Part shown: one piece after another, positions 2,577 through 50,837 of the stretch | How the letters are laid out: each line of letters begins with the position of its first letter | How positions within the stretch are numbered: the first letter of the stretch is position 1 | From: a bacterium | GTDB lineage: Bacteria; Vulcanimicrobiota; JAZDOK01 | DNA: 64,000 nt | NCBI GenBank assembly: GCA_043798715.1 | Contig: JAZDOK010000016.1 | Location: 1,036 to 65,035 of the forward strand | Reading direction: 5' to 3' | Program-made: the position numbers and the translations under genes | Notes under the pieces: model-generated | Seen by the model: only the letters and a program-made list of their open reading frames with translations | Told to the model about the DNA's origin: nothing | The model's database searches: none

Positions 2577-2951
2577 ATGACCAAGACTAGCGGAGGAGAA
2601 AAAAAGGAAGCCAGGGCGATAGCCAGGTTCGTTAAAATGGCTCCCAGGAAGCTGAGGCTGGTGATGGAAGTGATCCGGGGCAAAGCCGTGCACGACGCCA
2701 TCAATATTCTCAGGTTCACCCCCAAGCGGGCGGCCAGGACCATAGAGAAAGTCTTGAAATCGGCTTTGGCCAATGCTGAGAATAATTTAAGAATGAGTGG
2801 CGACGATCTCTTCGTCTCAGCCGGCTTTGTTGACGGTGGGCCTACCATGAAGCGCTTTACGCCGCGTGCAATGGGACGGGCCAGCAAGATTCACAAGAGG
2901 TCGAGCCACATCACCATCGTCGTTAGGGAGAGAGAGGAGGCGAGTCGCTAA
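2577..2951 (+). CDS. rplV: 50S ribosomal protein L22 (uL22)
   Basis: [32 protein letters not shown] matches uL22. Operon position fits. Confidence 0.95.
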
Positions 2952-3632
2952 GTGGGCCAGAAAATACATCCAATCGGTTTAAGGGTCGGCATTATTCGGG
3001 GATGGGATAGTCGCTGGTTTCAGAAGAAACACTACGTGGAATGGCTCCACGAAGATATCATGATCCGCAACTTCATCCGCAAGACGATGAGAAACGCCGG
3101 TTTATCGAGAATCGAGATCGAGCGTGCCGATAAAGTAAATGTCACCATCCAGACAGCCAAGCCGGGAATAGTCATCGGCAAGCGCGGCGCCGGTATTGAG
3201 GATCTTCGCAAGAAGCTCATCGCAATGACCGGAAAAGAGGTCAAGGTAAACGTTCAGGAGGTCAAGCAGCCGGAGCTGGACGCCAGGCTGGTCGCCGAGA
3301 ACATCGTCGAGCAGCTCGAAAAACGGGTGGCCTTCCGACGGGCCATGAAACAGGCCCTGGGCCGCTCCATGCGTGCCGGCGCCAAGGGCATCAAAATCCA
3401 GTGCGGAGGACGTCTGGGCGGCGCTGAAATAGCCCGTTCGGAGCGCACCTTCGAGGGTAAAGTCCCCCTTCACACCCTGCGGGCGGACATAGATTACGCA
3501 ATGGTGGAAGCCTACACTACCTATGGACGCATCGGAGTGAAGGTCTGGATTTACCGTGGCGACATTCTGCCTGCCGGCAAGAAAGAGGCGGCAGAGGCGG
3601 CATCCGACTCCAGAGAGAGGAGGTTTGACTGA
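2952..3632 (+). CDS. rpsC: 30S ribosomal protein S3 (uS3)
   Basis: GTG start. [14 protein letters not shown]...W.S.W and the KH-domain GIVIGKRG motif are present. Confidence 0.97.
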
Positions 3633-4066
3633 TGTTACAGCCGAAGCGGGTGGCCTACCGTAAGGTCCACCGTGGGAAAATGAGAGGCAAAGCGACCAGA
3701 GGCAACACGATTGCCTTCGGGGAGTATGGCATTCAGGCTCTCGAGTGCTGCTGGGTGACCAGCCGTCAGATAGAGGCATCTAGAATCGCCATTACCAGGT
3801 ATATCAAGCGCGGCGGGAAAGTCTGGATCAAGATTTTCCCGGACAAGTCCGTGACGAAGAAGCCTGCCGAGACCCGGATGGGAAGCGGAAAAGGAAATCC
3901 TGAGTTCTGGGTGGCGGTCGTCAAGCCGGGCCGGGTTCTTTTTGAGATTTCCGGCGTCACCGAGGCGGAGGCCCGGGCCGCCATGCGCCTGGCAGCCTTC
4001 AAACTGCCCTTAAGGACACAGTTCCTCATGAGAGAAAAACTAGGTGGTGATGGCAGTGAAAGTTAA
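3632..4066 (+). CDS. rplP: 50S ribosomal protein L16 (uL16)
   Basis: [35 protein letters not shown] is canonical uL16. Confidence 0.97.
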
Positions 4067-4082
4067 GGAAGCAGTCGGGAAG

Positions 4083-4265
4083 ATGAGAGAGATGACTCCC
4101 GTGGAACTCAAGGACAGACTTAAAGACGTCAAGGAAGAACTCTTTAATCTGAGATTTCAACTGGCGACCGGACATCTGGAGGATTTCACGAAGATCCGCC
4201 AGATTAGAAGGAATATCGCGCGGATTCAAACTGTTCTTAAGGAAAAGGAATTGGGGATTCGCTAA
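4083..4265 (+). CDS. rpmC: 50S ribosomal protein L29 (uL29)
   Basis: [16 protein letters not shown]...[11 protein letters not shown] motif. The ORF is open from 4044; I prefer ATG 4083, which lies after the rplP stop and has AAGGAAG upstream. The start is uncertain. Confidence 0.9.
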
Positions 4266-4276
4266 GGAGGAGCCTT

Positions 4277-4534
4277 ATGGAAAAGCGGAGCAGGCGCAAA
4301 ATCAGACTCGGCCGGGTCATCAGCGACAAGATGGATAAGACCGTCGTCGTAGTGGTGGAGAGGCAGTTTTCTCATCCGATTTACGGAAAGATTATCAAAA
4401 GAAGGACCAAATTTAAAGCCCATGATGAGAAGAACGAATGTCATGTGGGCGATACGGTCAAAATCGCTGAGACCAGACCTATGAGCCGCGAGAAACGCTG
4501 GAGGGTCGAGTCGATCGTGGAGAAGTCCAGATAA
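4277..4534 (+). CDS. rpsQ: 30S ribosomal protein S17 (uS17)
   Basis: [18 protein letters not shown]...HP.YGK..KR..KF.AHDE.NEC..GD.V.I.ETRP.S matches uS17. Confidence 0.96.
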
Positions 4535-4547
4535 GGGGGAGATAAGG

Positions 4548-4916
4548 ATGATCCAGCAACAGAGCCGCCTGAAGGTGGCTGATAATTCCGGGGCCAAAGT
4601 GATCATGTGCATCCGGGTGTCCAAGGGATCTCATCATAAATACGCTTATGTTGGGGACGTTATTGTTGCCTCGGTAAAGGTGGCCACCCCGGGCATGCCC
4701 GTCAAGAAGGGCGAAGTGGTCAAGGCGGTCGTGGTCCGGACCAAGAAAAAAATCAGAAGGCCGGACGGCTCCTATATCCGTTTTGACGAGAACGCGGCGG
4801 TTCTGATCAACGACCAGATGAATCCCCGCGGGACCCGGATATTCGGCCCGGTGGCCAGGGAACTGAGGGACAGAGAATTCATGAAAATAGTCTCTTTAGC
4901 GCCTGAAGTTCTATAA
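4548..4916 (+). CDS. rplN: 50S ribosomal protein L14 (uL14)
   Basis: [21 protein letters not shown] is canonical uL14. Confidence 0.97.
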
Positions 4917-10325: not shown

Positions 10326-11087
10326 ATGATTGCCATCAAGTCGGATGAGGAAATAGAGATCATGAGGGAGGCGGGACGGATTACGGCCCGGATACTGGAA
10401 GAAATAAAGAAGGCGATCGCTCCCGGTGTGACGACCGGGGAACTGGATCGTCTGGCGGAAGGATTGATCCGGAAGGAGGGCGCAGAGCCGCTCTTCAAGG
10501 GGTACCGGGGTAAATCACGCCGGCCTTTCCCCGCGTCAATTACGGTTTCAATCAACGATGAGGTAGTTCACGGCATCCCGGGGAAGAGAAAACTGTGTTC
10601 AGGAGACATTGTGAGCATCGACATGGGCGTCTCCTGGCGGGGATTTTGCGGTGATTCCGCCTTCACGGCGGCCATCGGGGAAGTTGATAAGCGCAGCAAA
10701 AAGCTGCTTGATGTCACCCGGGAGGCTCTTTACAAAGGGATTGAAAAGGCCAGGGCCGGCAATCACCTGACGGACATATCGAGCGCCGTGCAGGAGCACG
10801 TGGAGAAAAACGGGTTTTCCGTCGTGAGAGACCTGGTAGGGCACGGGATCGGGCGCCAGATGCACGAGGAGCCGCAGATTCCCAATTTCGGCCCGCCCGG
10901 TTTCGGTCCCGTCCTTGAGAAGGGGATGGTTCTGGCGATTGAACCCATGGTCAACATGGGAGGATACAAGGTGCGGTTTCTTTCGGATGATTGGACGGTC
11001 GTGACCGCGGACAAAAGTATTTCCGCTCACTTTGAACATACCGTGGCCGTCTCTGAGAACGGGCCGGTCATCCTGACGCAACAGTAG
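10326..11087 (+). CDS. map: type I methionine aminopeptidase
   Basis: 253 aa with the ...VHGIP......GDIVSID....W.G..GDSA.T and HGIG...HE.P.I.N motifs. Operon position fits. Confidence 0.95.
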
Positions 11088-12270: not shown

Positions 12271-12906
12271 ATGGCTAGGTATACCGGACCGTTGTGTCGC
12301 CTGTGCAGAAGAGAGGGAAACAAGCTTTTGCTCAAGGGTACACGCTGTTACACTGGGAAGTGCGCCATGGAGCGTTCCGAGAATAGATCGGGGCCGCCTG
12401 GGCCGCCCAGTCGGAGCAGGAGGAAGATTTCACAGTACGGAATTCAGCTCAGGGAAAAACAGAAGCTGAAGAGGATCTACAGGCTTCAGGAGCGCCAGTT
12501 CAGGAGGTATTTCCATATTGCCGAGCAGCAGAAGGGGATAACCGGCGAGAATTTTCTTGGCCTTCTCGAATGCCGTCTGGACAACGCCGTCTATCGGCTG
12601 GGCTTTGCCAGTTCCCGGAACCAGGCCCGGCAGATGGTAAGTCACGGTCATTTTCTGGTCAACGGGAGAAAAGTCAATATCCCCTCATACCTTCTAAGGC
12701 CGGTTGACGAGATCGTCCTGAAGGAGAACAGCCGCGATAATCCCCTGTTCAAGCAGTCTCTTGCGAGTGCGGCAGGGCGGGCCATCCCCCAGTGGCTGAA
12801 AATGGATGCGGATAATTTCAAAGGAACAGTGCTCTCAAGACCTTCCAGGGAAGAGATAGATACACAAGTAAAGGAAGAGCTGATCGTAGAGTTCTACTCC
12901 AGATAA
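12271..12906 (+). CDS. rpsD: 30S ribosomal protein S4 (uS4)
   Basis: ATG 12271 gives [23 protein letters not shown], with a GGGAGG RBS and a C-terminal S4 RNA-binding domain. The ORF-track start at 12223 overlaps rpsK. Confidence 0.96.
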
Positions 12907-13884: not shown

Positions 13885-14249
13885 AACACAAGGTCGTGAC
13901 CAGGACGCTCGGAAGGATTACCGGCCATAGAATCGCCATGCTCAGGAATCTGACGACGTCTCTTTTTATGCATCGTAAGATCGAGACGACGGAAACCCGG
14001 GCCAAGGAAGTGGCGAAATTTGCTCAACGGCTCATCACGCTGGCCAAGCGGGGAGACCTGGCGGCCAAGCGAGCGGTCTTTCAGCATATCCGGAACACGG
14101 ATGTCGCCAAGGAACTCTTCGATACGATTGCGCCCCAGTACCGTTCATCCGGGGATCACGAGGAGAGAAAAGGCGGTTATACCCGGATTTTAAAGCTCGG
14201 TCAGCGCAAGGGCGACGCGGCTCCCATGGTGATTATAGAGCTGGTATGA
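13881..14249 (+). CDS. rplQ: 50S ribosomal protein L17 (bL17)
   Basis: TTG start. ..LGR...HR.AMLRNL..SL..H..IETT..RAKE....A..LITLAK matches bL17. Confidence 0.95.
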
Positions 14250-15094
14250 TCCGGCTCGCCCGGCTGAGTCACACATACCAGCACGGAACTTCGGGCGAAA
14301 TAAACGCTCTTCAGGAAGTCGATCTTACCATCGGAGAGTGCGAGTTCGTCGCCATAATCGGTCCGAACGGCTGTGGAAAATCCACTCTGGCCAGGCATCT
14401 TAACGCACTCCTCCTGCCCACCGGCGGCGACGTGTGGGTGGAGGGTCTCAATACCAGGGAGCCGGAAAATATCGTGGAGATCCGCCGCCGGGTCGGGATG
14501 GTCTTTCAGAATCCCGAGACCCAGATAGTGGCAACGATGGTCGAGGAGGACGTGGCCTTCGGGCCTGAAAACCTGGGCCTTTCTCCGGAAGAAATAAGAA
14601 AACGAGTCAAAGAGGCCCTGCAGGCCGTAAGCCTGGAGGGCTTTGAACTTCTCTCCCCCCACCAGCTTTCCGGTGGTCAGAAACAAAGGGTGGCCCTGGC
14701 GGGCATCCTGGCGATGAGGCCGAGGACCATCGTGCTGGATGAGCCGACCGCCATGCTCGATCCCGCTGGCCGCCGCGAAGTCTTCCAGGCCGTAAGCCGC
14801 CTGAACACCGAAGAGGGCATCCGCGTCGTCTATATCACCCACTTCATGGAAGAGGCGGTGGAGGCCAGGCGGGTGATCGTTCTTGACCGCGGAACAATCG
14901 TGATGGACGGAACTTCGGCGGAGGTCTTCTCGCAATATGATCGGATGGCCGAACTTGGGGTGGGGGTGCCCTGCATAACCCGCCTCGATCACGCCCTCCG
15001 GGAAAAGGGCTTCAATCTTCCTAAAGTGCCGCTTTCCGCCGAAGAGATGGCGGATGAGCTTTCTCTTTTGCCTCTGAAGGCTTCTCTTCGGTAA
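14246..15094 (+). CDS. ecfA: energy-coupling factor (ECF) transporter ATPase subunit
   Basis: Walker [13 protein letters not shown] signature [10 protein letters not shown] and Walker [12 protein letters not shown]. It follows rplQ as ecfA does in many bacteria. Its last 264 nt are duplicated at 21186-21449. Confidence 0.9.
14831..15094 (+). repeat. left copy of the 264-bp direct repeat (ecfA 3' end); candidate attL-side homology
   Basis: Hand alignment with 21186-21449 gives about 22 mismatches in 264 nt (~92%). Homology starts sharply at TATATCACCC and ends at the stop codon. Confidence 0.85.
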
Positions 15095-15104
15095 ATCACG
15101 GGTT

Positions 15105-15235
15105 TGTCGGGGGTATCCCCCACGAAAGTACACCGTCGCCCCGCCATCGGCGGGGCGCGATTTCCCGCCAACGGCGGGACAACGCCTTTCTTAGGGAGAT
15201 ACCCCCTACTCCCCGTTTTCTCTCTTAGAAATCTG
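15105..15235 (+). repeat. GC-rich structured repeat element, copy A (MITE-like or structured RNA)
   Basis: It shares TGTCGGGGGTATCCCCCACGAAAGTAC...TCCCGCC(loop)GGCGGGAC...AACGCCTTTCTTAGG..ACCCCCT...GAAATCTG with 16661-16832. It has hairpins GGGGG-TAT-CCCCC, CGCCCCGCC-ATC-GGCGGGGCG and TCCCGCC-AAC-GGCGGGA. The ends, GGGGGTATCCCCC and GGGAGATACCCCC, are mutually complementary. Confidence 0.7.
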
Positions 15236-15313
15236 CGTAATCTTCTGAAACCAATTCATGCGGCCTATCCTGTTTGTATGCATTATCACGATAAAGTGCT
15301 AACATCAAATCCA

Positions 15314-16276
15314 CTATCGGGTCAAGAACGCGTGCAGACATGCTCTCATGTCTGCACGCGTTCTTCCGTGAAGTAGTACTAGGATTAATCCAGCAATGGC
15401 ACCAATCACAGCTCCTAACAGACAACTGAAATAGATTTTAGCGATTTCAAAAATATGAACAAAATTAAATTCGGAAATAATCATGTTGAACATAGTACTC
15501 AAAAGCCCAGTCATAGCACCCGCCAACCCGCCTAATAATGGAACCCGCAGAAAAGCTTCGGGCCAGCGCCTTCCCTTTATTATCTTTAATGCTTCGCCTG
15601 AGTAAAAGTTAAATAAGAAATATCCGATTAAAACATCTCCAGTAAGGTTTAATAAGGCGCAATCAAGGAAATACGGAAATATTGTTTTGGAATAAAATAT
15701 TCCTTCCAACCCTCCGATAAGGCCTCCAAAGATCCCTGCGACAACTCCTGCAATAGTAATGACTCCCTCATCACTATGCTTGTCGATTGCTTCGTTTATT
15801 GAAGTTTGCATTTGGCCTGACTTTTTTAGCAGAAGGGCATAAACAAAGCCCGCAAGGAACATTCCTAATAATAATCCGGTAAAGCCACCAATAAAAAACC
15901 CTATAATAGTTCCAACAATCGGAAAAGTGAAAGTTCCAGTCATGCATCCGGAAGCTATCCCCGCCATGAGTCCGTATAAAGCACCTTGCGAAACGTATTT
16001 TCTTAACGATTTAATTGTGTTTTTTGAAAATCTCCTGGAAGCCATCCATCCGAAGAATATACCCGTTAAGATTCCTGTTATTATTACTGCTGGCGTTGAA
16101 GAGCTGTCAACTATTAGCTGACGGCTGAGAGGTTCACGGAAAATAGAGTAGTAGGGGAAGCTGGCTATGTAATACTTATTGCACAGCAAGGCGGAAGTAC
16201 CTCCAATTATTCCGCCGCATATACCAACGACGATTCTTCCCCAGAGAAGGATCTTTTTATTTCCCAATACATTCAC
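15314..16276 (-). CDS. polytopic membrane protein with repeated glycine-zipper (GxxxG) segments, unknown function
   Basis: 320-aa AT-rich ORF with multiple hydrophobic segments (GICGGIIGG, GFFIGGFTGLLLGMFLAGF, GIFGGLIGGLEG, LGGLAGAMTGLL). I recognise no family. Confidence 0.7.
   Translation of the reverse strand: MNVLGNKKILLWGRIVVGICGGIIGGTSALLCNKYYIASFPYYSIFREPLSRQLIVDSSSTPAVIITGILTGIFFGWMASRRFSKNTIKSLRKYVSQGALYGLMAGIASGCMTGTFTFPIVGTIIGFFIGGFTGLLLGMFLAGFVYALLLKKSGQMQTSINEAIDKHSDEGVITIAGVVAGIFGGLIGGLEGIFYSKTIFPYFLDCALLNLTGDVLIGYFLFNFYSGEALKIIKGRRWPEAFLRVPLLGGLAGAMTGLLSTMFNMIISEFNFVHIFEIAKIYFSCLLGAVIGAIAGLILVLLHGRTRADMRACLHAFLTR
15324..15365 (-). terminator. perfect 19-bp-stem inverted repeat (hairpin) at the 3' end of the membrane-protein gene
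   Basis: AAGAACGCGTGCAGACATG-CTCT-CATGTCTGCACGCGTTCTT. It overlaps the last codons of ORF 15314-16276. There is no clear U-tract, so the terminator role is tentative. Confidence 0.45.
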
Positions 16277-16516
16277 CCCGCTTTCATCCGAAACGAACTA
16301 GGGGACTGTGTGTTCATGGGGTCGGGCTACACATTTGCCATTTATTCAGAGAACATACGGCGTAATAAATGCAGCCCCGTAACAAGTTGGAAAGGAGAAA
16401 ATGACCATTTCGGAAGGTTCTCGATAGCTGTATCTTTTCCTTTCCGTCTGTTAAAGCAAAGAGGGGGCAATTTGACGAAGTGTCCGGTAATAGATGAAAG
16501 GTTCTGTGAACGTTGT

Positions 16517-16596
16517 GTGATGCGGTCGTTATTGTCTTCTCGACCGCATCACACCTCCATAAGGGGCCTGTGCCTTGCAAGCACGGCCCCTTTATT
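16517..16596 (+). repeat. two-hairpin repeat module, copy 1 (second copy at 35505-35590)
   Basis: GTGATGCGGTCG-ttattgtcttc-CGACCGCATCAC, then CCATAAGGGGCCTGTGCCTTGCAAGCACGGCCCCTTT. It is near-identical to the sequence after the gdhA stop. Confidence 0.8.
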
Positions 16597-16660
16597 ACTT
16601 CCATCTGGGTTTGCTTCAGAGCCAAACTTGGCGATCATTTAAGCGTTATCTGGTTCGGGC

Positions 16661-16832
16661 TGTCGGGGGTATCCCCCACGAAAGTACGCCGTCGATTTTC
16701 CCTGCGAGAAAATCGCGACTCGGTGCTCAGCCTCGCTCGTCCCGCCTTCGGCGGGACACCGTGCCCGCTCGGCCTCCGCAACGCCTTTCTTAGGTGGACA
16801 CCCCCTCTTCCCGTTTCTTTCTGCGAAATCTG
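16661..16832 (+). repeat. GC-rich structured repeat element, copy B (about 40 nt longer than copy A)
   Basis: It has the same 5' block (TGTCGGGGGTATCCCCCACGAAAGTAC), the same internal TCCCGCC-TTC-GGCGGGA hairpin with a different loop, and the same 3' block (AACGCCTTTCTTAGGTGGACACCCCCT..GAAATCTG) as 15105-15235. Confidence 0.7.
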
Positions 16833-17181
16833 AATCAGGGAATTATGAAGGAGAACGCGAGGAATCACGAGCCTCAGAATGCCCTCTATTCTGCAGAGGA
16901 GCGCCAAGTTGGAGGAATCTGCAGGGTCAGGGCGAAAGGGTGACATGGCGGGGTGGAGGCGGTTTATTCGACAGGAAGAGCTGGTTCGACTGTTCGACTG
17001 GCCGATGGAAACTGCGGTCGCCAAGTGATATGGCAAAAGACATGCCGAAACTACCGTGGTCATGGCCAACACGGGCGGCTTCACTAAGGAGGAACTCGAT
17101 TGCATTCAAATACCGCAATGGGCAGGAAATTGAGGAAGCTGAAGGAAATTAGGTCGTGAAGATCGATTACAGGAGTTTCGT

Positions 17182-19491
17182 TTGAATACTTTAAACCTGC
17201 GCACCAGATACCGCCCCTTGCGTATTGGATGGTGTGTCCGTGACGGCAATATAGATGATTTTCGGAAAGTGTTGCGACTTACCCATACGCTGTGGGGTGG
17301 GCGATATAATCCCGTGATCCCGATAAATGATACAAAATTTGCTGAACAGTTGGTGAATCTTTTCCGCGTTGATGCTCTTTATCCGGCCTCAGATGACAAG
17401 GCACTCGATGATTTCATCAAACGGTTCTCTTACCTTCCCTGGCCGGTTTTACATAAAGAGTTATTTGTTGATGGCCCTTTTGGCAAAATGACGACGCTTC
17501 TTGATGTTACTCATCCTATCCTCCATCAAAAAGACGATATCCATAAATTAACGCATCCTTATTATGAATTTCACTTGCTTGATTGGGATAATTCAGATCC
17601 GTTAGGCGATGTTTTATTGGCCACTATTGGAAGTTATCCAACAAAAGAGGAGTGTGGTATTGACTATATCGATATGATAGCAAAACATTTAGCAAGAAGA
17701 AAAGTTCCCTTAGATATTAAATTACCGCTCCCGAACAATATTTATAAGATTTGTACTCCTTCAGCACTTACTGCTTATGATTTAGCTGAAGATTTTATCG
17801 AACCTTTTGATTGGAATAACAAAGGATTATATGTGGGAGATGCTCAGGACTTTTTTGATCTCGTTAACTTTTGGAATCTTAGAGCGTGTAATATTTATTT
17901 GCTTTTCTACGATCCACGACATGCTGAACGGCTAAACATTTTAAAGGATGCTTATTTAAATGAATTACATCGTGATTCTCCTGTATGGAGGCAGCAGATT
18001 GATGTTTTTACAAAATCAGATAATATTGATATATCAATATTAGGTTCGAATATCAGAAGAACTATTGCGTCAATGAACGATTGGAAATTATTAAAAACTA
18101 AACCACCCCTGATGCGTTTCAAAGAACAGTCCGCGCTTGGCTCTATAGCAGATGAAGACGGTACGCTTTCTGTTTGTTTTCAGCTTCCTGAGAAGCCTAT
18201 TTTCGATGAGTATCATCTTCAGAGACAACATTTAGTTGTCTCTGTAAATCCGCTAATTGACATTGCAAAATTTAGTAATTCTACTGCTATATTTCGCCCC
18301 CCTTTTATTCCTGAGTTAAACGAGTACTATGGGCGAGAGTGTTATTTCCATTGGAACGCAGCAAGGGCCGAAGTAGACGGCCTAGGAATTATCATTGATA
18401 TTACTCAAACAGATCTAACTTTACGCGCACTAGAAAATCGCAGTCTGATTGCAAAAATATTCGAAGTTTTTGGAATGAAGGCTGAGCCCAGCCAGCCTGG
18501 GCTTATCAGCGCTCGGCTCATCCAACAAATGGGCGGGCTTCAAGGTTGCCGTGTATTTAAAATTACAGGCGTCAGAGAACTTATTGAGAAATATAGTCCA
18601 TCGAAGTATTTTACAAGGAGTGGCGCTAAACAAATTATTGGAAAGCTAAATTTTCCAGAATTTGAAAATCTCTACATCGAAAAGAGACGGGATGGGAAAT
18701 TAAAACTCGAAGATGTTTTAAAATATTTAGCCAACAAAGGTGTATTCAGAGTCGGTCTAAATTTCCAATGCCCGAATTGCGAATTGAAATTCTGGTTGCA
18801 TTTAGATGATATTAAGACAATAGCAGAATGTGAGTATTGCGGGAATAAATTTAACGCGACCTCTCAACTCCGGGATCAATACTGGGCATACCGTCGTTCT
18901 GGGCTTTTCGGTCGAGACGACCATCAGGAAGGGGGCATTCCTGTTGCCCTTACCCTCCAGCAGCTCGATGCCACCTTGGAGCCGGAGTTAATGCTTTACA
19001 CCACAGGGATGAATATTAATCCCATAACCGCTCCTGTAAATACCTGCGAGACAGACTTAGTCCTTATTACGCAGACCCACAATGGACGTGTTCAGTTGGC
19101 AATCGGGGAATGTAAAACGCGTGGTGAGAAGATCGCGGAGAAAGCGGAGAAAGATGTAGAAAACCTGAAAAAAGTGGCAGATGCATTCCCTCCAGAAAGG
19201 TTCGAAAGCTTTATCGTTTTTTCAAAAACACATCCTTTTACAGAAAACGAAATTAAACGCTGTCAAGCCGCTCAGGTTTCAGGCCGACATCGAGTAATTA
19301 TCTTGTCTGATCGAGAACTTGAGCCGAATTTTATTTACGAACGCACAGTTTTAGAATTCGATATAAGAGAAAGCGTGATATCTCTGAAAGACTTAGCAAA
19401 AAATACACACGATATTTACTTTGAGCCAAAACCTAGAGCCCCAAAATCTAACAAAGAAAATGAACCGCACGATGCGAATGATCGTCAATAG
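17182..19491 (+). CDS. large unknown protein: unrecognised N-terminal ~530 aa + CxxC..CxxC zinc ribbon + PD-(D/E)xK-like nuclease core (candidate defence gene 1)
   Basis: 769-aa AT-rich ORF with a TTG start 6 nt after AGGAG. The zinc ribbon CPNCELKF..x..CEYCGNKF is at nt 18769-18840. ETDLVLI...GRVQLAIGECKTRGE at nt 19048-19116 fits the D-x(n)-E-x-K restriction-endonuclease-fold signature. Confidence 0.8.
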   Translation: MNTLNLRTRYRPLRIGWCVRDGNIDDFRKVLRLTHTLWGGRYNPVIPINDTKFAEQLVNLFRVDALYPASDDKALDDFIKRFSYLPWPVLHKELFVDGPFGKMTTLLDVTHPILHQKDDIHKLTHPYYEFHLLDWDNSDPLGDVLLATIGSYPTKEECGIDYIDMIAKHLARRKVPLDIKLPLPNNIYKICTPSALTAYDLAEDFIEPFDWNNKGLYVGDAQDFFDLVNFWNLRACNIYLLFYDPRHAERLNILKDAYLNELHRDSPVWRQQIDVFTKSDNIDISILGSNIRRTIASMNDWKLLKTKPPLMRFKEQSALGSIADEDGTLSVCFQLPEKPIFDEYHLQRQHLVVSVNPLIDIAKFSNSTAIFRPPFIPELNEYYGRECYFHWNAARAEVDGLGIIIDITQTDLTLRALENRSLIAKIFEVFGMKAEPSQPGLISARLIQQMGGLQGCRVFKITGVRELIEKYSPSKYFTRSGAKQIIGKLNFPEFENLYIEKRRDGKLKLEDVLKYLANKGVFRVGLNFQCPNCELKFWLHLDDIKTIAECEYCGNKFNATSQLRDQYWAYRRSGLFGRDDHQEGGIPVALTLQQLDATLEPELMLYTTGMNINPITAPVNTCETDLVLITQTHNGRVQLAIGECKTRGEKIAEKAEKDVENLKKVADAFPPERFESFIVFSKTHPFTENEIKRCQAAQVSGRHRVIILSDRELEPNFIYERTVLEFDIRESVISLKDLAKNTHDIYFEPKPRAPKSNKENEPHDANDRQ

Positions 19492-19523
19492 GAGGGTAGT
19501 GAAGAAGTATGACTCGCGAATTT

Positions 19524-19568
19524 GACTGGGTTTTGCATCAGCAGGAATGGTAGTTCTTCGAGCGAAAG
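19524..19568 (+). repeat. 45-nt direct repeat, copy 1 (pseudogenised 5' fragment of an AlbA_2-like gene)
   Basis: GACTGGGTTTTGCATCAGCAGGAATGGTAGTTCTTCGAGCGAAAG matches 20601-20645 at 40/45 positions. This copy carries an in-frame TAG. Confidence 0.8.
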
Positions 19569-19584
19569 AAAGGGAGGATCCAAG

Positions 19585-20592
19585 ATGCCAATTAAAAACA
19601 CCTGTTTTGGAATATTACCATTTAGAAGCCGCTCGATTGACAATAGATTTAAAAACATTATCCACCCTCTTGTTGAAACACACACCGGTCTTGTATATGA
19701 AGATGCACGTGTTTACTATGAAGCAAAAAACGAAAAAATGGATTTAATTTCAAGAATGGTTGAAGATGCAAAATTGGTAATAGTTGATATTTCAGAAGAC
19801 AATCCCAATGTTTTTTTTGAATTTGGCATAGCTTATCACCTAAAAAAGCCGATTATCATACTATGCAAAAAGTCGGAATGGAAGAAAGTCCGAAAGGAAA
19901 AACTGCCTTTTGATATACAAGGCCGCGAAATCCTCATCTACAAAGATAACGCAGCTCTAAGAGTACAACTTGGAAAATATATCTTTGACAGTCTCTATCC
20001 AACTCAGGAAATTTTGGTTTCATGGGAATCAGCGGATGCAAGAAATTATTTCAAAAGTCCCACAGAAATACAAATCTATCCGGAGCCTACAGATCCTAAA
20101 GGTGAAATTTGGAGCAGTAAGGCTGTTGATCTTGGTTTTACAATTGAATATCATGTAAAAATCCACGAACCCAATGGCAAAAATCCTGATATAAGACTCC
20201 ATTTTTCACACAAGCCTGGGAAAGAAGGGTATCCACGCATCACCATCATATTCCCCTGGGAGTATAATTGTGAAGAATGTCACATAGATTATTTTTACGA
20301 CCCAAAGGAACAAAGAATGGAGGAAAGGTTGCAACAAGTACCGGTTGCAAAACAAAACATCGCAATCAAAGAATTTGATGTTCTGGTCTCGTTTTGTTGG
20401 CCCAACCTTGTTTTTGAGTCTCCTTTTTTTGGTGATGCAAAACCACGAGTCAATGTCTCTTTAAACCTGCTCCGCAATAAAGGTTTTCCTCTTCATCTTG
20501 CCCAATACATTGGCTTCGCATCACCAAATAGCCAAGTGACTATCAGCGATATAAAAATTAAAGAAATTTCCCATGTGGAGAAAAACTCATGA
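19585..20592 (+). CDS. nucleoside 2-deoxyribosyltransferase/TIR-like Rossmannoid domain protein with unknown beta-rich C-terminal domain (candidate defence gene 2)
   Basis: ATG 19585 lies 8 nt after AAGGGAGG, giving 335 aa. The N-terminus reads FGILPF....ID..F...I.P......(~50 aa)..AKLVIVDISEDNPNVFFEFGIAYHLKKPIIILCKK...LPFDIQGR.ILIY. This resembles the D-x-G/N-x-x-x-E-x-G-x-A-x-x-x-x-K-P motif of NDT-like domains, assigned from memory. I do not recognise the C-terminal ~200 aa. Confidence 0.75.
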   Translation: MPIKNTCFGILPFRSRSIDNRFKNIIHPLVETHTGLVYEDARVYYEAKNEKMDLISRMVEDAKLVIVDISEDNPNVFFEFGIAYHLKKPIIILCKKSEWKKVRKEKLPFDIQGREILIYKDNAALRVQLGKYIFDSLYPTQEILVSWESADARNYFKSPTEIQIYPEPTDPKGEIWSSKAVDLGFTIEYHVKIHEPNGKNPDIRLHFSHKPGKEGYPRITIIFPWEYNCEECHIDYFYDPKEQRMEERLQQVPVAKQNIAIKEFDVLVSFCWPNLVFESPFFGDAKPRVNVSLNLLRNKGFPLHLAQYIGFASPNSQVTISDIKIKEISHVEKNS

Positions 20593-20822
20593 GCAATCTG
20601 GACTGGGTTCTTCATCAGCAGGAAGGGCAGTTCTTCGAGCAAAAGAGCTGCTATGAGTGAAAGGTTGGGGGTTAAACAACCATGAAAAGAATTACGCCTG
20701 AAAAAGAATCGCTGACCGTCGAATTCAAGAGCGACAAGAGTCGCCTTCTTCGAAAACTGGTGCAAGCAGATAAGCTAAAATTAGTCGGGAAGGGACGAAA
20801 CGCTTATTATATCACGACCTAA
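20589..20822 (+). pseudogene. collapsed remnants of an AlbA_2-domain / winged-helix (RecG-like 'ATP-binding/transcriptional regulator') gene
   Basis: There are two mini-ORFs. The first is MSNLDWVLHQQEGQFFEQKSCYE* (20589-20660). The second is MKRITPEKESLTVEFKSDKSRLLRKLVQADKLKLVGKGRNAYYITT* (20682-20822). The second joins an AlbA_2-type start (E.E.LEFK) directly to a wHTH-type tail (L..L....L...G.GR...Y), implying an internal deletion. Confidence 0.5.
20601..20645 (+). repeat. 45-nt direct repeat, copy 2
   Basis: GACTGGGTTCTTCATCAGCAGGAAGGGCAGTTCTTCGAGCAAAAG. It lies inside a 23-codon ORF (20589-20660) whose ATG overlaps the gene-2 stop (ATGA). Confidence 0.8.
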
Positions 20823-20830
20823 TCGCGCGG

Positions 20831-20870
20831 AAACGCGCGCGCGTTTATCTGAAACACGCGCGCGTTTATC
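20831..20870. repeat. tandem 19-nt repeat with alternating-CG palindromic core (possible operator or recombination site)
   Basis: AAACGCGCGCGCGTTTATC-tg-AAACACGCGCGCGTTTATC. The first unit contains the perfect 16-nt palindrome AAACGCGCGCGCGTTT. Confidence 0.75.
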
Positions 20871-20890
20871 ATGCAGACAAAGTGTAGTTT

Positions 20891-21088
20891 ATGTCGAAAA
20901 TAGTCACGATATCTATTGCCATAGAAGCCATTATCCATAATGTCCATAAAGTTCGACAAATTATTGTTCGTCATATCTTGGAGGTGTCGGTATCCACTGC
21001 AACCCATATCGCTCATAACCTGCTTGAGACAGGTTGGTTGATTCCGGTTGGGAACAAGCGCTGGAGGCGCTATATTTCCAGGGAATAG
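20891..21088 (+). CDS. small winged-helix-like ORF (possibly another C-terminal gene fragment)
   Basis: 65 aa. ..ILEVSVSTATHIAHNLLETGWLIPVGNKRWRRY resembles an HTH plus wing. No convincing RBS, and the N-terminal half looks non-native. Confidence 0.3.
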   Translation: MSKIVTISIAIEAIIHNVHKVRQIIVRHILEVSVSTATHIAHNLLETGWLIPVGNKRWRRYISRE

Positions 21089-21185
21089 CATGTCGTACAC
21101 TTTAATTGGGCTATCGAACACTTTGTTTGTTTAATTTGTGTGCCCCAGGGTATACGATAGCAACAGGCTGGATCCCTCTACTCTT

Positions 21186-21449
21186 TATATCACCCACTTC
21201 ATGGAAGAGGCCGTGGAGGCCAGGCGGGTGATCGTTCTTGACCGCGGAACAATCGTGATGGACGGAACCCCGGCGGAAGTATTATCGCAGTACGATCAGA
21301 TGGAGAAACTGGGGGTGGGGGTGCCCTGCATAACCCGCCTGGATCACGCCCTCAGGGAAGAGGGCTTCAACCTTCCTTCAGTGCCGCTTTCCGCCGAGGA
21401 GATGGCGGATGAGCTTTCTCTTTTGCCTCTGAAGGCTTCTCCTCGGTGA
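21186..21449 (+). pseudogene. orphan 3' fragment of ecfA (right copy of the 264-bp direct repeat)
   Basis: It translates to [32 protein letters not shown]...[11 protein letters not shown], about 88% identical to the ecfA C-terminus. There are no Walker motifs or credible start upstream. It overlaps the 3' end of convergent yvcK. Confidence 0.85.
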
Positions 21450-22734
21450 CTTCGAGGATGAGCTTGTTCAGAATGTCCGCCAGCTTTTTTGAATCATGGC
21501 GGACCATGTTGGTCTCGGAGATGAGATTGGCGCAGATGGCATGAAGGCCCATCTCCTCGACTTTCTCCCGGTCCGCCCGGACGGGGAAGGCGCCCTCCGC
21601 CTCGTATTTCTGCGAGAGCCTGGCCGGCATTTTGTCATTGATGAGTACATAGTCAAAAATCTGCTCGCCGATTTGTTCTAAAATTGTTCTGACATGATCC
21701 GAGGCCGTGAAGCGATCGGTCTCTCCGGGCTGGGTCATGACGTTGCAGACATATATTTTAATCGCCCGGGATCCCTTGATGGCCTCCGGAACTCCGTCTA
21801 TCAGGAGATTGGGAAGGACGCTGGTGTAGAGGCTTCCCGGGCCGTATATGATGGCGTCCGCCTCCCGGATGGCCTGCAGGACCTCCGGGACGGGGGGGCA
21901 GTGCGCCGGTTTGAGGAAGACCTCTCTGATGGGCTTCCCGGCTTTAGAGATGGTGGTCTCCCCCTCGACGACGGAAGAGTCGGACAGCACGGCGCAGAGG
22001 ATGGGCGGGGTGAGGGTGGAGGGCAGGACCCTTCCTCTGACGGCCAGGATCTTGGAGGACATCTTGAGTGCCCGCTCAAAGTCTCCGGCGATGGAGGTCA
22101 TGGCGACCAGAAAAAGGTTTCCGAAGTTGTGCCCGCCCAGTCCCTCGCCGTCTGAGAATCTGAATTGAAAGAGTTCAGACATGAAGGACTCGTCGTCGGC
22201 CAGGGCCACCAGGCAATTTCGAAGGTCTCCGGGAGGGATGACCCCAAGCTCCTTCCGGAGACGCCCGGAACTTCCCCCGTCGTCGGTCACGGTCACCACG
22301 GCCGTGAGGTTCCCGGTGTGTTCCTTAAGGCCGCTCAGGAGGCTGGAGAGGCCGGTGCCCCCGCCGATGGCCACGATCTTAAGACCCTGGCGGAGCTGCC
22401 GGCGTTCGTAAACCAGCTCGACCAGCCTCTTCTGCTCGTAGGGCATGGCCGCATGGTAGAGCGATGAAAAGCCCTGGCGGATGCCGAATATGATGATTAG
22501 GAATCCCGTGACGGCGAAGAGGTAATCCACGAGCCTGGGGGACAGCTCCCGCCCGGTCAGGCGCTGCAGAATGTTCAAGACGGCGATCTCAATCTCAATG
22601 GGCCCCTTGGCGTTGACGATGAGGATGAAGCCCAGCGAAAAAATTAGGAGGCCCACCCAGGAGAGGATAAGCCAGCGCTTGATCTTCATCCCCGGTAGAA
22701 GCCACTTGAAAAGACGGTCGAAAAATTTCAGCAT
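21367..22734 (-). CDS. yvcK: gluconeogenesis factor YvcK / CofD-like (UPF0052) protein with N-terminal membrane anchor
   Basis: KIVAIGGGTGLSSLLSGLKEHT.NLTAVVTVTDDGGSSGRLR.ELGV.PPGD.RNCLVALA is the YvcK-family signature. Confidence 0.9.
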   Translation of the reverse strand: MLKFFDRLFKWLLPGMKIKRWLILSWVGLLIFSLGFILIVNAKGPIEIEIAVLNILQRLTGRELSPRLVDYLFAVTGFLIIIFGIRQGFSSLYHAAMPYEQKRLVELVYERRQLRQGLKIVAIGGGTGLSSLLSGLKEHTGNLTAVVTVTDDGGSSGRLRKELGVIPPGDLRNCLVALADDESFMSELFQFRFSDGEGLGGHNFGNLFLVAMTSIAGDFERALKMSSKILAVRGRVLPSTLTPPILCAVLSDSSVVEGETTISKAGKPIREVFLKPAHCPPVPEVLQAIREADAIIYGPGSLYTSVLPNLLIDGVPEAIKGSRAIKIYVCNVMTQPGETDRFTASDHVRTILEQIGEQIFDYVLINDKMPARLSQKYEAEGAFPVRADREKVEEMGLHAICANLISETNMVRHDSKKLADILNKLILEVTEEKPSEAKEKAHPPSPRRKAALKEG

Positions 22735-50384: not shown

Positions 50385-50837
50385 GATGACAGGGAAGTGG
50401 GCCTGTAAGCCGAGTTCTGTTCCCGTCCGGATTTCTCCGGAAGGACGGCGATCATCTATCTGGGATCTGCATTACTGCACACCTCGTGCGACCACACCCG
50501 AGAGACTGCCGGCGGGCAGCCGGCGCAGAATTCTTAATTATCAACCAAAAATCCTGCATTCTCTCCTATTTGGTCTTGCTCCGGATGGGGTTTGCCTAGC
50601 CGGCAGGTCGCCCTGCCGCTGGTGAGCTCTTACCTCACCGTTGCACCCTTGCTCATCGTCCGGGAAATCCCGGCCTGGTGAGCGGTCTTCATTTCTGTGG
50701 CACTTTCCCGGGGTCACCCCCGCTGGGCGTTACCCAGCACCCCGCCCTGTGGAGCTCGGACTTTCCTCAGGCGCCTCCATTCATAGTTTGCCTATCAAAC
50801 TTCCGCACCCGCGACCACCCGTCCCACTTCCCTGTCA
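50385..50837 (-). ncRNA. rnpB: RNase P RNA, bacterial type A
   Basis: The minus strand contains GAGGAAAGTCCGAGCTCCACAGGGC..GGGTAACGCCC, GGGAAAGTGCCACAGAAA, GGTAAGAGCTCACC, CCGGAGCAAGACCAAATAGG and ACAGAACTCGGCTTACAG. The P1 helix pairs GACAGGGAAGTGGG with CCCACTTCCCTGTC. Ends are accurate to about +/-5 nt. Confidence 0.9.

Follow-up and report, generated by a model that had tools for sequence, protein, structure and literature searches.

An AT-rich islet between duplicated ecfA tails is probably an occupied allele of an insertion hotspot at the overlapping ecfA and yvcK gene ends

The window analyzed here is a 64,000-nt stretch of contig JAZDOK010000016.1 (assembly GCA_043798715.1), from an uncultured bacterium of the Vulcanimicrobiota lineage JAZDOK01. 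It carries two copies of the 3′ end of ecfA, which encodes the ATPase of an energy-coupling factor (ECF) transporter, and between them lies an AT-rich islet of 6.1 kb. The distal copy overlaps the end of yvcK, a gene convergent with ecfA. How did foreign DNA come to lie between two gene ends that share their last nucleotides, with both genes left complete? A preliminary description took the arrangement for the classical footprint of an element that integrates into the 3′ end of a gene and brings a replacement tail. On balance, we favor another answer: the locus is an occupied allele of a hotspot at the ecfA/yvcK overlap, likely imported as a block by homologous recombination, and not a self-mobile element.

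The two tail copies, hereafter P (proximal) and D (distal), were aligned over 264 nt. The alignment was free of gaps and contained 22 mismatches (92% identity), in agreement with the preliminary description. Homology begins abruptly at TATATCACCC (position 21186 in D) and runs to the ecfA stop codon, TAA in P (15092–15094) and TGA in D (21447–21449). P completes an intact ecfA open reading frame (ORF), which comes after rplQ, at the end of the ribosomal-protein operon. As had been noted, no ecfA body precedes D, and D runs into the tail of yvcK; this overlap is 83 nt long. Thanks to the duplication, both genes are 3′-complete, ecfA via P and yvcK via D (Table 1).

Composition sets the islet apart from its surroundings. 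The G+C content is 0.43 over positions 15095–21185 and 0.56 in both flanks, and this sharp dip is the only one of its kind in the 64 kb. The cargo is compositionally foreign. The earlier picture of an AT-rich island of about 6.1 kb holds for the average, but the islet is not uniform: it contains three G+C-rich stretches, at 15105–15235 and 16646–16832 (both 0.61) and at 16833–17181 (0.52). No integrase or recombinase was matched among the ORFs of the window using Pfam, NCBIfam, and PADLOC. Pfam scans of six-frame translations of the non-genic intervals 16270–17190 and 20585–21190 likewise gave no integrase remnant at E ≤ 1, consistent with the initial statement that no integrase is present.

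Related genomes were recovered via the protein database and one metagenome pattern scan; only about six exist. An exact look-up of the window EcfA returned no record, and in a scan of GTDB genomes with EcfA the best match had 58% identity, with yvcK adjoining ecfA in 0 of the 80 loci. A 41-nt pattern from the repeat had 0 matches in JGI metagenome contigs or viral contigs; a looser 27-nt pattern in the metagenome scan recovered L088, the closest relative (95.6% identity to the window in the left flank and 93.7% in the right). Viral and JGI metagenome contigs from outside the clade yielded no copy of the repeat core. In L088 the site is empty: ecfA (2680–3528, plus strand) and yvcK (3446–4813, minus strand) converge with an 83-nt overlap and a single tail, and therefore the window carries an insertion. 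Four more assemblies from different samples (L090–L093) are identical to L088 in arrangement and tail. The empty site that the preliminary description proposed to look for thus exists, and the relatives do not all share one arrangement.

Three further relatives are occupied at the same site, each in a different way. L081 (~92% nucleotide identity) holds one radical-SAM gene and, beside yvcK, a decayed ecfA-tail remnant that spans tail positions 95–264 with internal deletions, giving a tail repeat of at least 168 nt. L082 (~82% identity) holds TspO and an MNT/HEPN pair, with a tail repeat of only ~34 nt. In L094, a repeat that we call R2 lies immediately 3′ of the ecfA stop codon, at the same junction as in the window. 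The contigs of L094 and of a further relative, L089, end within R2 or the tail. No recombinase was found in the L081, L082, or L094 alleles of the site. Together with the window there are thus four occupied alleles and one empty allele, and the tail duplications of the occupied ones differ in length (264 nt, at least 168 nt, and ~34 nt). Because both the cargo and the repeat length differ, the site behaves as a recurrent hotspot and not as the attachment site of a single element. The two tail copies within L081, and likewise those within L082, have lineage-specific bases in common, which indicates that the duplications were made, or homogenized, separately in each lineage. In a more remote relative (62% YvcK identity), yvcK has no ecfA beside it; the overlap and the hotspot are therefore restricted to this clade.

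Two side observations concern the tails of these relatives. In L082 (10773–10849 compared with 12294–12360), the insertion junction lies inside ecfA, the last 12 codons are replaced by the new sequence SLWGQVLQSNIY, and the ancestral tail sequence persists solely as the antisense of the yvcK end. In addition, tails freed from the yvcK overlap (P in the window and the L081 tail, 10847–10849) end in TAA, whereas tails still overlapped (D in the window, and the L088 and L089 tails) end in TGA. Either the change took place in parallel or the split-type tails descend from a common ancestor.

The empty allele provided a reference against which both copies could be measured. Between the window and L088, ecfA differs by 2.4% over nucleotides 1–503 (12/503), by 8.5% over nucleotides 504–585 (7/82), and by 9.5% in tail P (25/264). 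The contrast between the ecfA body (19/585) and the tail was significant in a Fisher test (p=3e-4), as was the excess in the 82 nt upstream of the repeat (p=0.01), so that the elevated divergence starts ~80 nt before the repeat boundary. For all other genome pairs, divergence was 7–9% in nucleotides 1–503 and 8.5–12% in the later segments. Judged from these counts, the final ~350 nt of the window ecfA appear to have a genealogy as deep as that between species. D differs from the L088 tail at 22 of 264 positions, unevenly: 11.6% over positions 1–147 (17/147) and 4.3% over positions 148–264 (5/117), with a likelihood change-point at 21333. The yvcK body is 4.9% diverged from that of L088.

The preliminary description had read D as the ancestral gene end and P as the imported tail. 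That polarity did not hold: since P (25/264) and D (22/264) are about equally far from the L088 tail while the body differs by merely 2.4%, neither seems to be native, and from these comparisons neither qualifies as this genome's ancestral end. Native-level divergence appears limited at most to the right ~117 nt of D. Outgroup polarization of P against the empty-site tail failed, with about 11–12 private changes in each; the L088 tail (~12) thus has as many as P, and it follows that the tail region was replaced or accelerated in both lineages. In the L089 tail, states specific to P and states specific to D occur together, so that the tails act like alleles that recombine. When a single crossover was sought in the P/D mosaic by a maximum chi-square test, neither reference gave a significant result (p=0.08 with L088 and p=0.18 with L081). 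D fits the pattern of a single crossover in a defined core (11.6% followed by 4.3%), but the left part of P and the 82 nt upstream do not (8.5–8.8%). The steps from 2.4% to 8.5–9.5% in ecfA and from 11.6% to 4.3% in D are those expected of recombination tracts in flanking core genes, although an assembly that switched between strains could mimic them.

P and D are nearly identical at positions 1–83 and 214–264 and differ by 14.6% between these blocks. The near-identical ends had been proposed as crossover cores. However, this profile of conserved ends and a diverged center recurs when orthologous tails from different genomes are compared, so constraint accounts for the pattern and recombination cores are not needed. 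The first conserved block encodes the H-loop region, and the last is read on both strands, now or recently, through dual coding with yvcK. P-specific changes fall mainly at third codon positions, as they should where a gene end is in use, and D-specific changes are spread over all codon positions.

Table 1. Features of the ecfA/yvcK locus in the window (positions are those of the 64,000-nt stretch).
Feature	Position	Strand	Description
ecfA	14246–15094	+	ECF-transporter ATPase, 282 aa, intact; Pfam ABC_tran 4.8e-31; NCBIfam ECF_ATPase_1 2e-106
P, proximal ecfA tail (264 nt)	14831–15094	+	last 87 codons from the H-loop (YITH...) and TAA stop
R2 copy 1	15105–15235		degenerate, 43-nt deletion; starts 10 nt past the ecfA stop
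Membrane-protein ORF, 320 aa	15314–16276	-	glycine-rich, multi-pass, no family match; G+C 0.41
R2 copy 2	16646–16832		full length, G+C 0.61; 92% identical to the L088 copy, 97% to the ecfA-adjacent L094 copy
769-aa protein	17182–19491	+	N-terminal Rossmann-like region; CxxC...CxxC zinc ribbon (530–553); C-terminal E-x-D...E-x-K nuclease-like motif
46-nt direct repeat, copy 1	19524–19569	+	stop-interrupted 5′ end of a decayed gene (M..DWVLHQQEW*)
TIR-like protein, 335 aa	19585–20592	+	N-terminal nucleoside-2-deoxyribosyltransferase/TIR-like domain; C-terminal concanavalin-A-like beta-sandwich
Decayed gene fragments	20590–21121	+	46-nt copy 2 stub; ...ESLTVEFK... fragment; two winged-helix-like C-terminal stubs (domain reading by eye)
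46-nt direct repeat, copy 2	20601–20646	+	opens a 23-codon stub
D, distal ecfA tail	21186–21449	+	no ecfA body upstream; last 83 nt antisense to the yvcK 3′ end
yvcK (CofD-related, 455 aa)	21367–22734	-	convergent with ecfA; Pfam CofD 4.6e-115; TIGR01826 YvcK 2.9e-115
Block at between-species divergence from the empty-site lineage	14749–21333		approximate breakpoints ~14675–14749 and ~21320–21362; putative imported allele

We propose that the 83-nt convergent overlap of ecfA and yvcK acts as a recurrent insertion hotspot in this small uncultured lineage, and that inserted DNA would be kept when the ecfA tail is duplicated, P serving the ecfA C-terminus and D serving yvcK. The block imported into this genome may have comprised ~80 nt of the ecfA body, P, the islet, and the left ~147 nt of D. 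It would have come by homologous recombination from a donor ~9% diverged, with crossovers in ecfA at ~14700–14750 and inside D at ~21333. A single import of the whole occupied allele is preferred because it is the simplest one event that yields both divergence steps. The original duplication, in an earlier genome, could have arisen in two ways. A circle bearing a tail copy may have entered by a single (Campbell-type) crossover. Alternatively, one-ended homologous recombination coupled with an illegitimate join may have shifted the old tail downstream, a mechanism proposed for the effector arrays of the type VI secretion system (T6SS; PMC5361080).

Several points weigh against this reading. A crossover inside the 264-nt tail is what single-crossover entry predicts and is a coincidence under block import; single-crossover entry also predicts a native left part of P, which was not seen and which counts against that model in turn. 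The empty-site tail, with ~12 lineage-specific changes, is not a pristine ancestor, and polarity cannot be fixed with it. The counts are small and come from only the few related genomes. An assembler switching between two co-occurring strains would give the same divergence steps. In the window, L094, and L081 alike, the left junction coincides exactly with the ecfA stop, a hint of either a more specific mechanism or common descent of the split state. Finally, neither a near-identical copy of the islet nor a donor carrying it was found in the sequence collections searched.

The R2 repeat bears on one of the alternatives. It is a G+C-rich repeat of ~190–207 nt, present in the window in two copies that flank the 320-aa membrane-protein ORF, in L088 at 10703–10909, and in L094 at 1603–1756. 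The L088 copy is a clean ~207-nt insertion at an unrelated locus, between two other genes, and neither the window nor L081 has an insertion there. Copies in different genomes are 92–97% identical, whereas the ecfA bodies of these genomes differ by ~8%; R2 is thus more alike than its host genomes, which suggests recent spread. The L088 copy, on the strand that matches the minus strand of the window, folds far better than shuffled sequences (z = -4.7). R2 lacks terminal inverted repeats, and a target duplication is not obvious. Rfam searches of the islet and R2 gave only sub-threshold chance matches (SorY, 30 bits against a threshold of 111), and viral contigs contained no match to the R2 core. 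Upstream of R2 copy 2 and in the other non-coding parts, candidate decayed tail copies scored within shuffled controls. The R2 insert of L088 begins with ATATCAC, resembling the start of the tail repeat (TATATCACCC).

Other explanations have to be weighed against block import. A site-specific integrative element that targets the H-loop part of ecfA, carries a replacement tail in its attP, and has lost its integrase or used one in trans would account for much of what is seen: the direct repeats correspond to the gene 3′ end, P ends exactly at the stop codon, an empty site exists, the highly conserved H-loop codons at which the repeat starts would make sense as a target, D is mosaic in joining a foreign-like left part to a native-like right part, and the islet is visibly decayed. 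We nevertheless consider such an element unlikely. Neither an integrase nor a remnant of one was found, six-frame Pfam scans included, and the site has three other integrase-less alleles whose junctions and repeat lengths differ; other genomes hold different cargo where the same element might have been expected. The left part of P and the 82 nt upstream are at foreign-level and not native divergence, the breakpoint test was not significant, and the repeat core is without a copy in viral or JGI metagenome contigs outside the clade. Of the footprint originally described, the insertion, the empty site, and the restored gene stand, but three unrelated integrase-less cargos at one site fit a recombination hotspot better. 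A smaller mobile unit is also conceivable: the ecfA tail and R2 could form a non-autonomous, trans-mobilized unit that was inserted before the resident tail, with cargo accreting later between R2 and the old tail. The window and L094 indeed share an identical junction of ecfA stop, ATCACGGG, and R2, although their ecfA bodies are 8% apart. The high identity of the R2 copies, which exceeds genome similarity, the clean insertion elsewhere in L088, the strong folding, and the ATATCAC start of that insert point the same way. The ATATCAC match, however, is short and was noticed post hoc, R2 copy 2 is not preceded by tail-like sequence, terminal inverted repeats, target duplication, and a transposase are all missing, and the occupied alleles of L081 and L082 have no R2. 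This account seems doubtful to us. We are equally doubtful of a related speculation, in which recombinase-free cassettes that start with an ecfA copy from H-loop to stop (possibly followed by R2) anchor in the gene and displace the resident tail, which persists downstream as the end of yvcK. If true, such tail displacement would be the housekeeping-gene counterpart of the C-terminal displacement of polymorphic toxins, with R2 as a trans-mobilized or guiding element.

The duplication and the insertion might instead be unrelated events, a tandem 264-nt tail duplication having first created a neutral junction between two independent gene ends into which foreign DNA was inserted later. Both the intactness of the two genes and the heterogeneous, nested cargo would then be explained, and so would the changes at all codon positions in the non-overlapped part of D, compared with mainly third positions in P. 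Each later insertion, however, would have to strike the exact junction of the copies; P and D are 8.3% diverged, as much as the tails of different species; D has no indels, unlike the old remnant in L081; and P- and D-specific states are present in the tails of other genomes. We regard this order of events as improbable, slightly more so than a mobile tail and R2 unit. An assembly artefact, in which the duplication or the join at 21186 is chimeric or mis-collapsed, is very improbable. The contig appears to be of the metagenome type, and the divergence steps could be the product of a strain-switch chimera, a concern that persists for them. For the duplication itself, the copies are 8% different, no k-mer is shared at the 21185/21186 junction that could trigger a jump in the assembly graph, and independent assemblies of three relatives show a similarly split locus, with ecfA-tail remnants beside yvcK.

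The islet between the two tails carries three larger genes. The 769-aa protein is one of more than 1000 database members of an unnamed family for which Pfam has no model. Its CxxC...CxxC ribbon is invariant, and E623, D625, E643, and K645, which form a PD-(D/E)xK-like motif, are invariant in 31 homologs. An AlphaFold2 (AF2) model of the protein had a pLDDT (predicted local distance difference test) score of 85, and its best Foldseek matches were Cdn1, Can2, and Card1 (E 1.4e-5 to 6e-3) with low TM-scores; the match at E 1.4e-5, which would bear on a CARF domain that binds cyclic oligoadenylate, had a TM-score of just 0.22/0.38. No Pfam CARF match was obtained, nor any sequence match to the Protein Data Bank. 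The protein had no matches in viral contigs, and plasmid records gave only two distant hypothetical proteins. Restriction–modification (RM), AAA_15, and patatin genes are found around homologs; the neighborhoods of five homologs are free of cas and cyclase genes, and the islet has no cas genes. Some family members are fused to AIG2/GGACT domains (P0161, P0174, and P0185). From the predicted fold and the motif, the 769-aa protein is a candidate uncharacterized defense nuclease.

The 335-aa protein encoded downstream matched the PADLOC TIR effector model (5e-8) and had no match to Pfam TIR; among its homologs, 13 of 36 match PF05014 (Nuc_deoxyrib_tr). In its AF2 model (pLDDT 86), the C-terminal domain matches lectin, CBM66, and GH16 folds at E 2e-9. 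A conserved two-gene system of the 769-aa and TIR-like genes was considered and rejected, as the downstream gene differs in all five homolog loci. The two 46-nt copies that bracket the TIR-like gene are 89% identical, and both represent the 5′ end of a gene starting M..DWVLHQQEGQFFE.K, a second, smaller instance of an insertion bracketed by a duplicated gene end. The last 600 nt of the islet are gene debris, and the fragments there (20590–21121) had no Pfam match at E ≤ 1. This debris also contains twin adjacent, near-identical G+C palindromes at 20824–20870 (GAAACGCGCGCGCGTTTATC, twice), which score as terminator-like. Nested direct repeats surround both the membrane-protein gene and the TIR-like gene, and the islet was therefore built stepwise; it is a decaying mosaic. 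Judged by predicted fold and gene neighborhood, the cargo probably serves anti-phage defense.

Other features of the window were recorded alongside. YvcK has a hydrophobic N-terminal extension of ~115 aa and a low-complexity C-terminal tail of ~28 aa, the latter being the part encoded antisense to ecfA. Its nearest named relatives are in metagenome-assembled genomes of Eremiobacterota and Armatimonadota, and the nearest relatives of EcfA are Bacillota. The sole Rfam match above the gathering threshold in the window is a bacterial class A RNase P RNA (50390–50830, minus strand, 276 bits), and no tRNA genes were found in the 64 kb.

How does this locus compare with known systems? At chromosomal hotspots of horizontal gene transfer (HGT), recombination in the core genes on either side reportedly drives the turnover of cargo, and integrases are often lacking. 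The ecfA/yvcK locus resembles them in that the same core-gene pair holds different accessory genes in close relatives, mobility genes are absent, recombination tracts appear in the flanks, and the cargo is probably of a defense type. Such hotspots between conserved core genes are the subject of PMC5635113. The difference is the overlap of ecfA and yvcK, owing to which occupation requires the duplication of up to 264 nt of gene end; the junctions of this duplication differ from lineage to lineage. Integrative elements that insert in a gene end and restore it include tRNA-gene islands, SGI1 in trmE, and ICESt3 in fda. Direct repeats derived from the target gene, a P copy that completes the gene, and empty sites in relatives are shared with them, as with dusA-specific islands (PMC4482086). 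Unlike these elements, the locus has no integrase, its repeat is 264 nt long and 8% diverged instead of the usual tens of nucleotides, and in different genomes it holds several small cargos that are unrelated to one another. A further parallel is the displacement of C-termini at the loci of polymorphic toxins (T6SS effector/immunity arrays, Rhs, and orphans of contact-dependent inhibition, CDI): an incoming module that has the conserved upstream part of a gene in common with the resident brings a new 3′ end, the old end is orphaned downstream, and no dedicated recombinase is involved (PMC5361080). Here, by contrast, the gene is a housekeeping one for an ABC ATPase, and its two tails are equivalent in function. 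The orphan ecfA tail has been kept because it encodes the end of yvcK on the opposite strand.

The cargo invites comparison as well. Can2, Card1, and Cdn1 nucleases are activated by cyclic oligoadenylate. The 769-aa model matches their structures best, and a PD-(D/E)xK-like motif is present; the three are CARF-nuclease effectors of type III CRISPR (PMC7969007 and PMC12825302). Unlike them, the 769-aa protein is twice as long, has an added zinc ribbon, gives low TM-scores, and lacks cas or cyclase neighbors at the five homolog loci. Thoeris-like systems are TIR signaling pairs. The order of a 769-aa gene followed by a TIR/deoxyribosyltransferase-like gene recalls such pairs, but there is no conserved pairing of the ThsA type (SLOG or Macro), the gene downstream of 769-aa homologs is variable, and the TIR-like gene of the window is itself a later insertion bracketed by its own 46-nt repeat.

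The locus is a real but fairly ordinary variable hotspot of a known type, whose twist is that the overlap forces a duplication at every occupation. Two by-products extend beyond it, namely an unnamed protein family of more than 1000 members with a predicted Can2/Card1-like fold, a zinc ribbon, a PD-(D/E)xK motif, and defense-type neighborhoods, and the strongly structured R2 repeat of ~190 nt that is spreading among these genomes. The locus also counsels caution, as direct repeats of a 3′ end around an AT-rich insert do not by themselves amount to a site-specific integrative element. It provides a clean natural example that overlapping convergent genes can still be an insertion hotspot: the gene end that the two share has to be duplicated with each occupation, and its copies then evolve apart from the remainder of the gene, as alleles that are freely exchanged.

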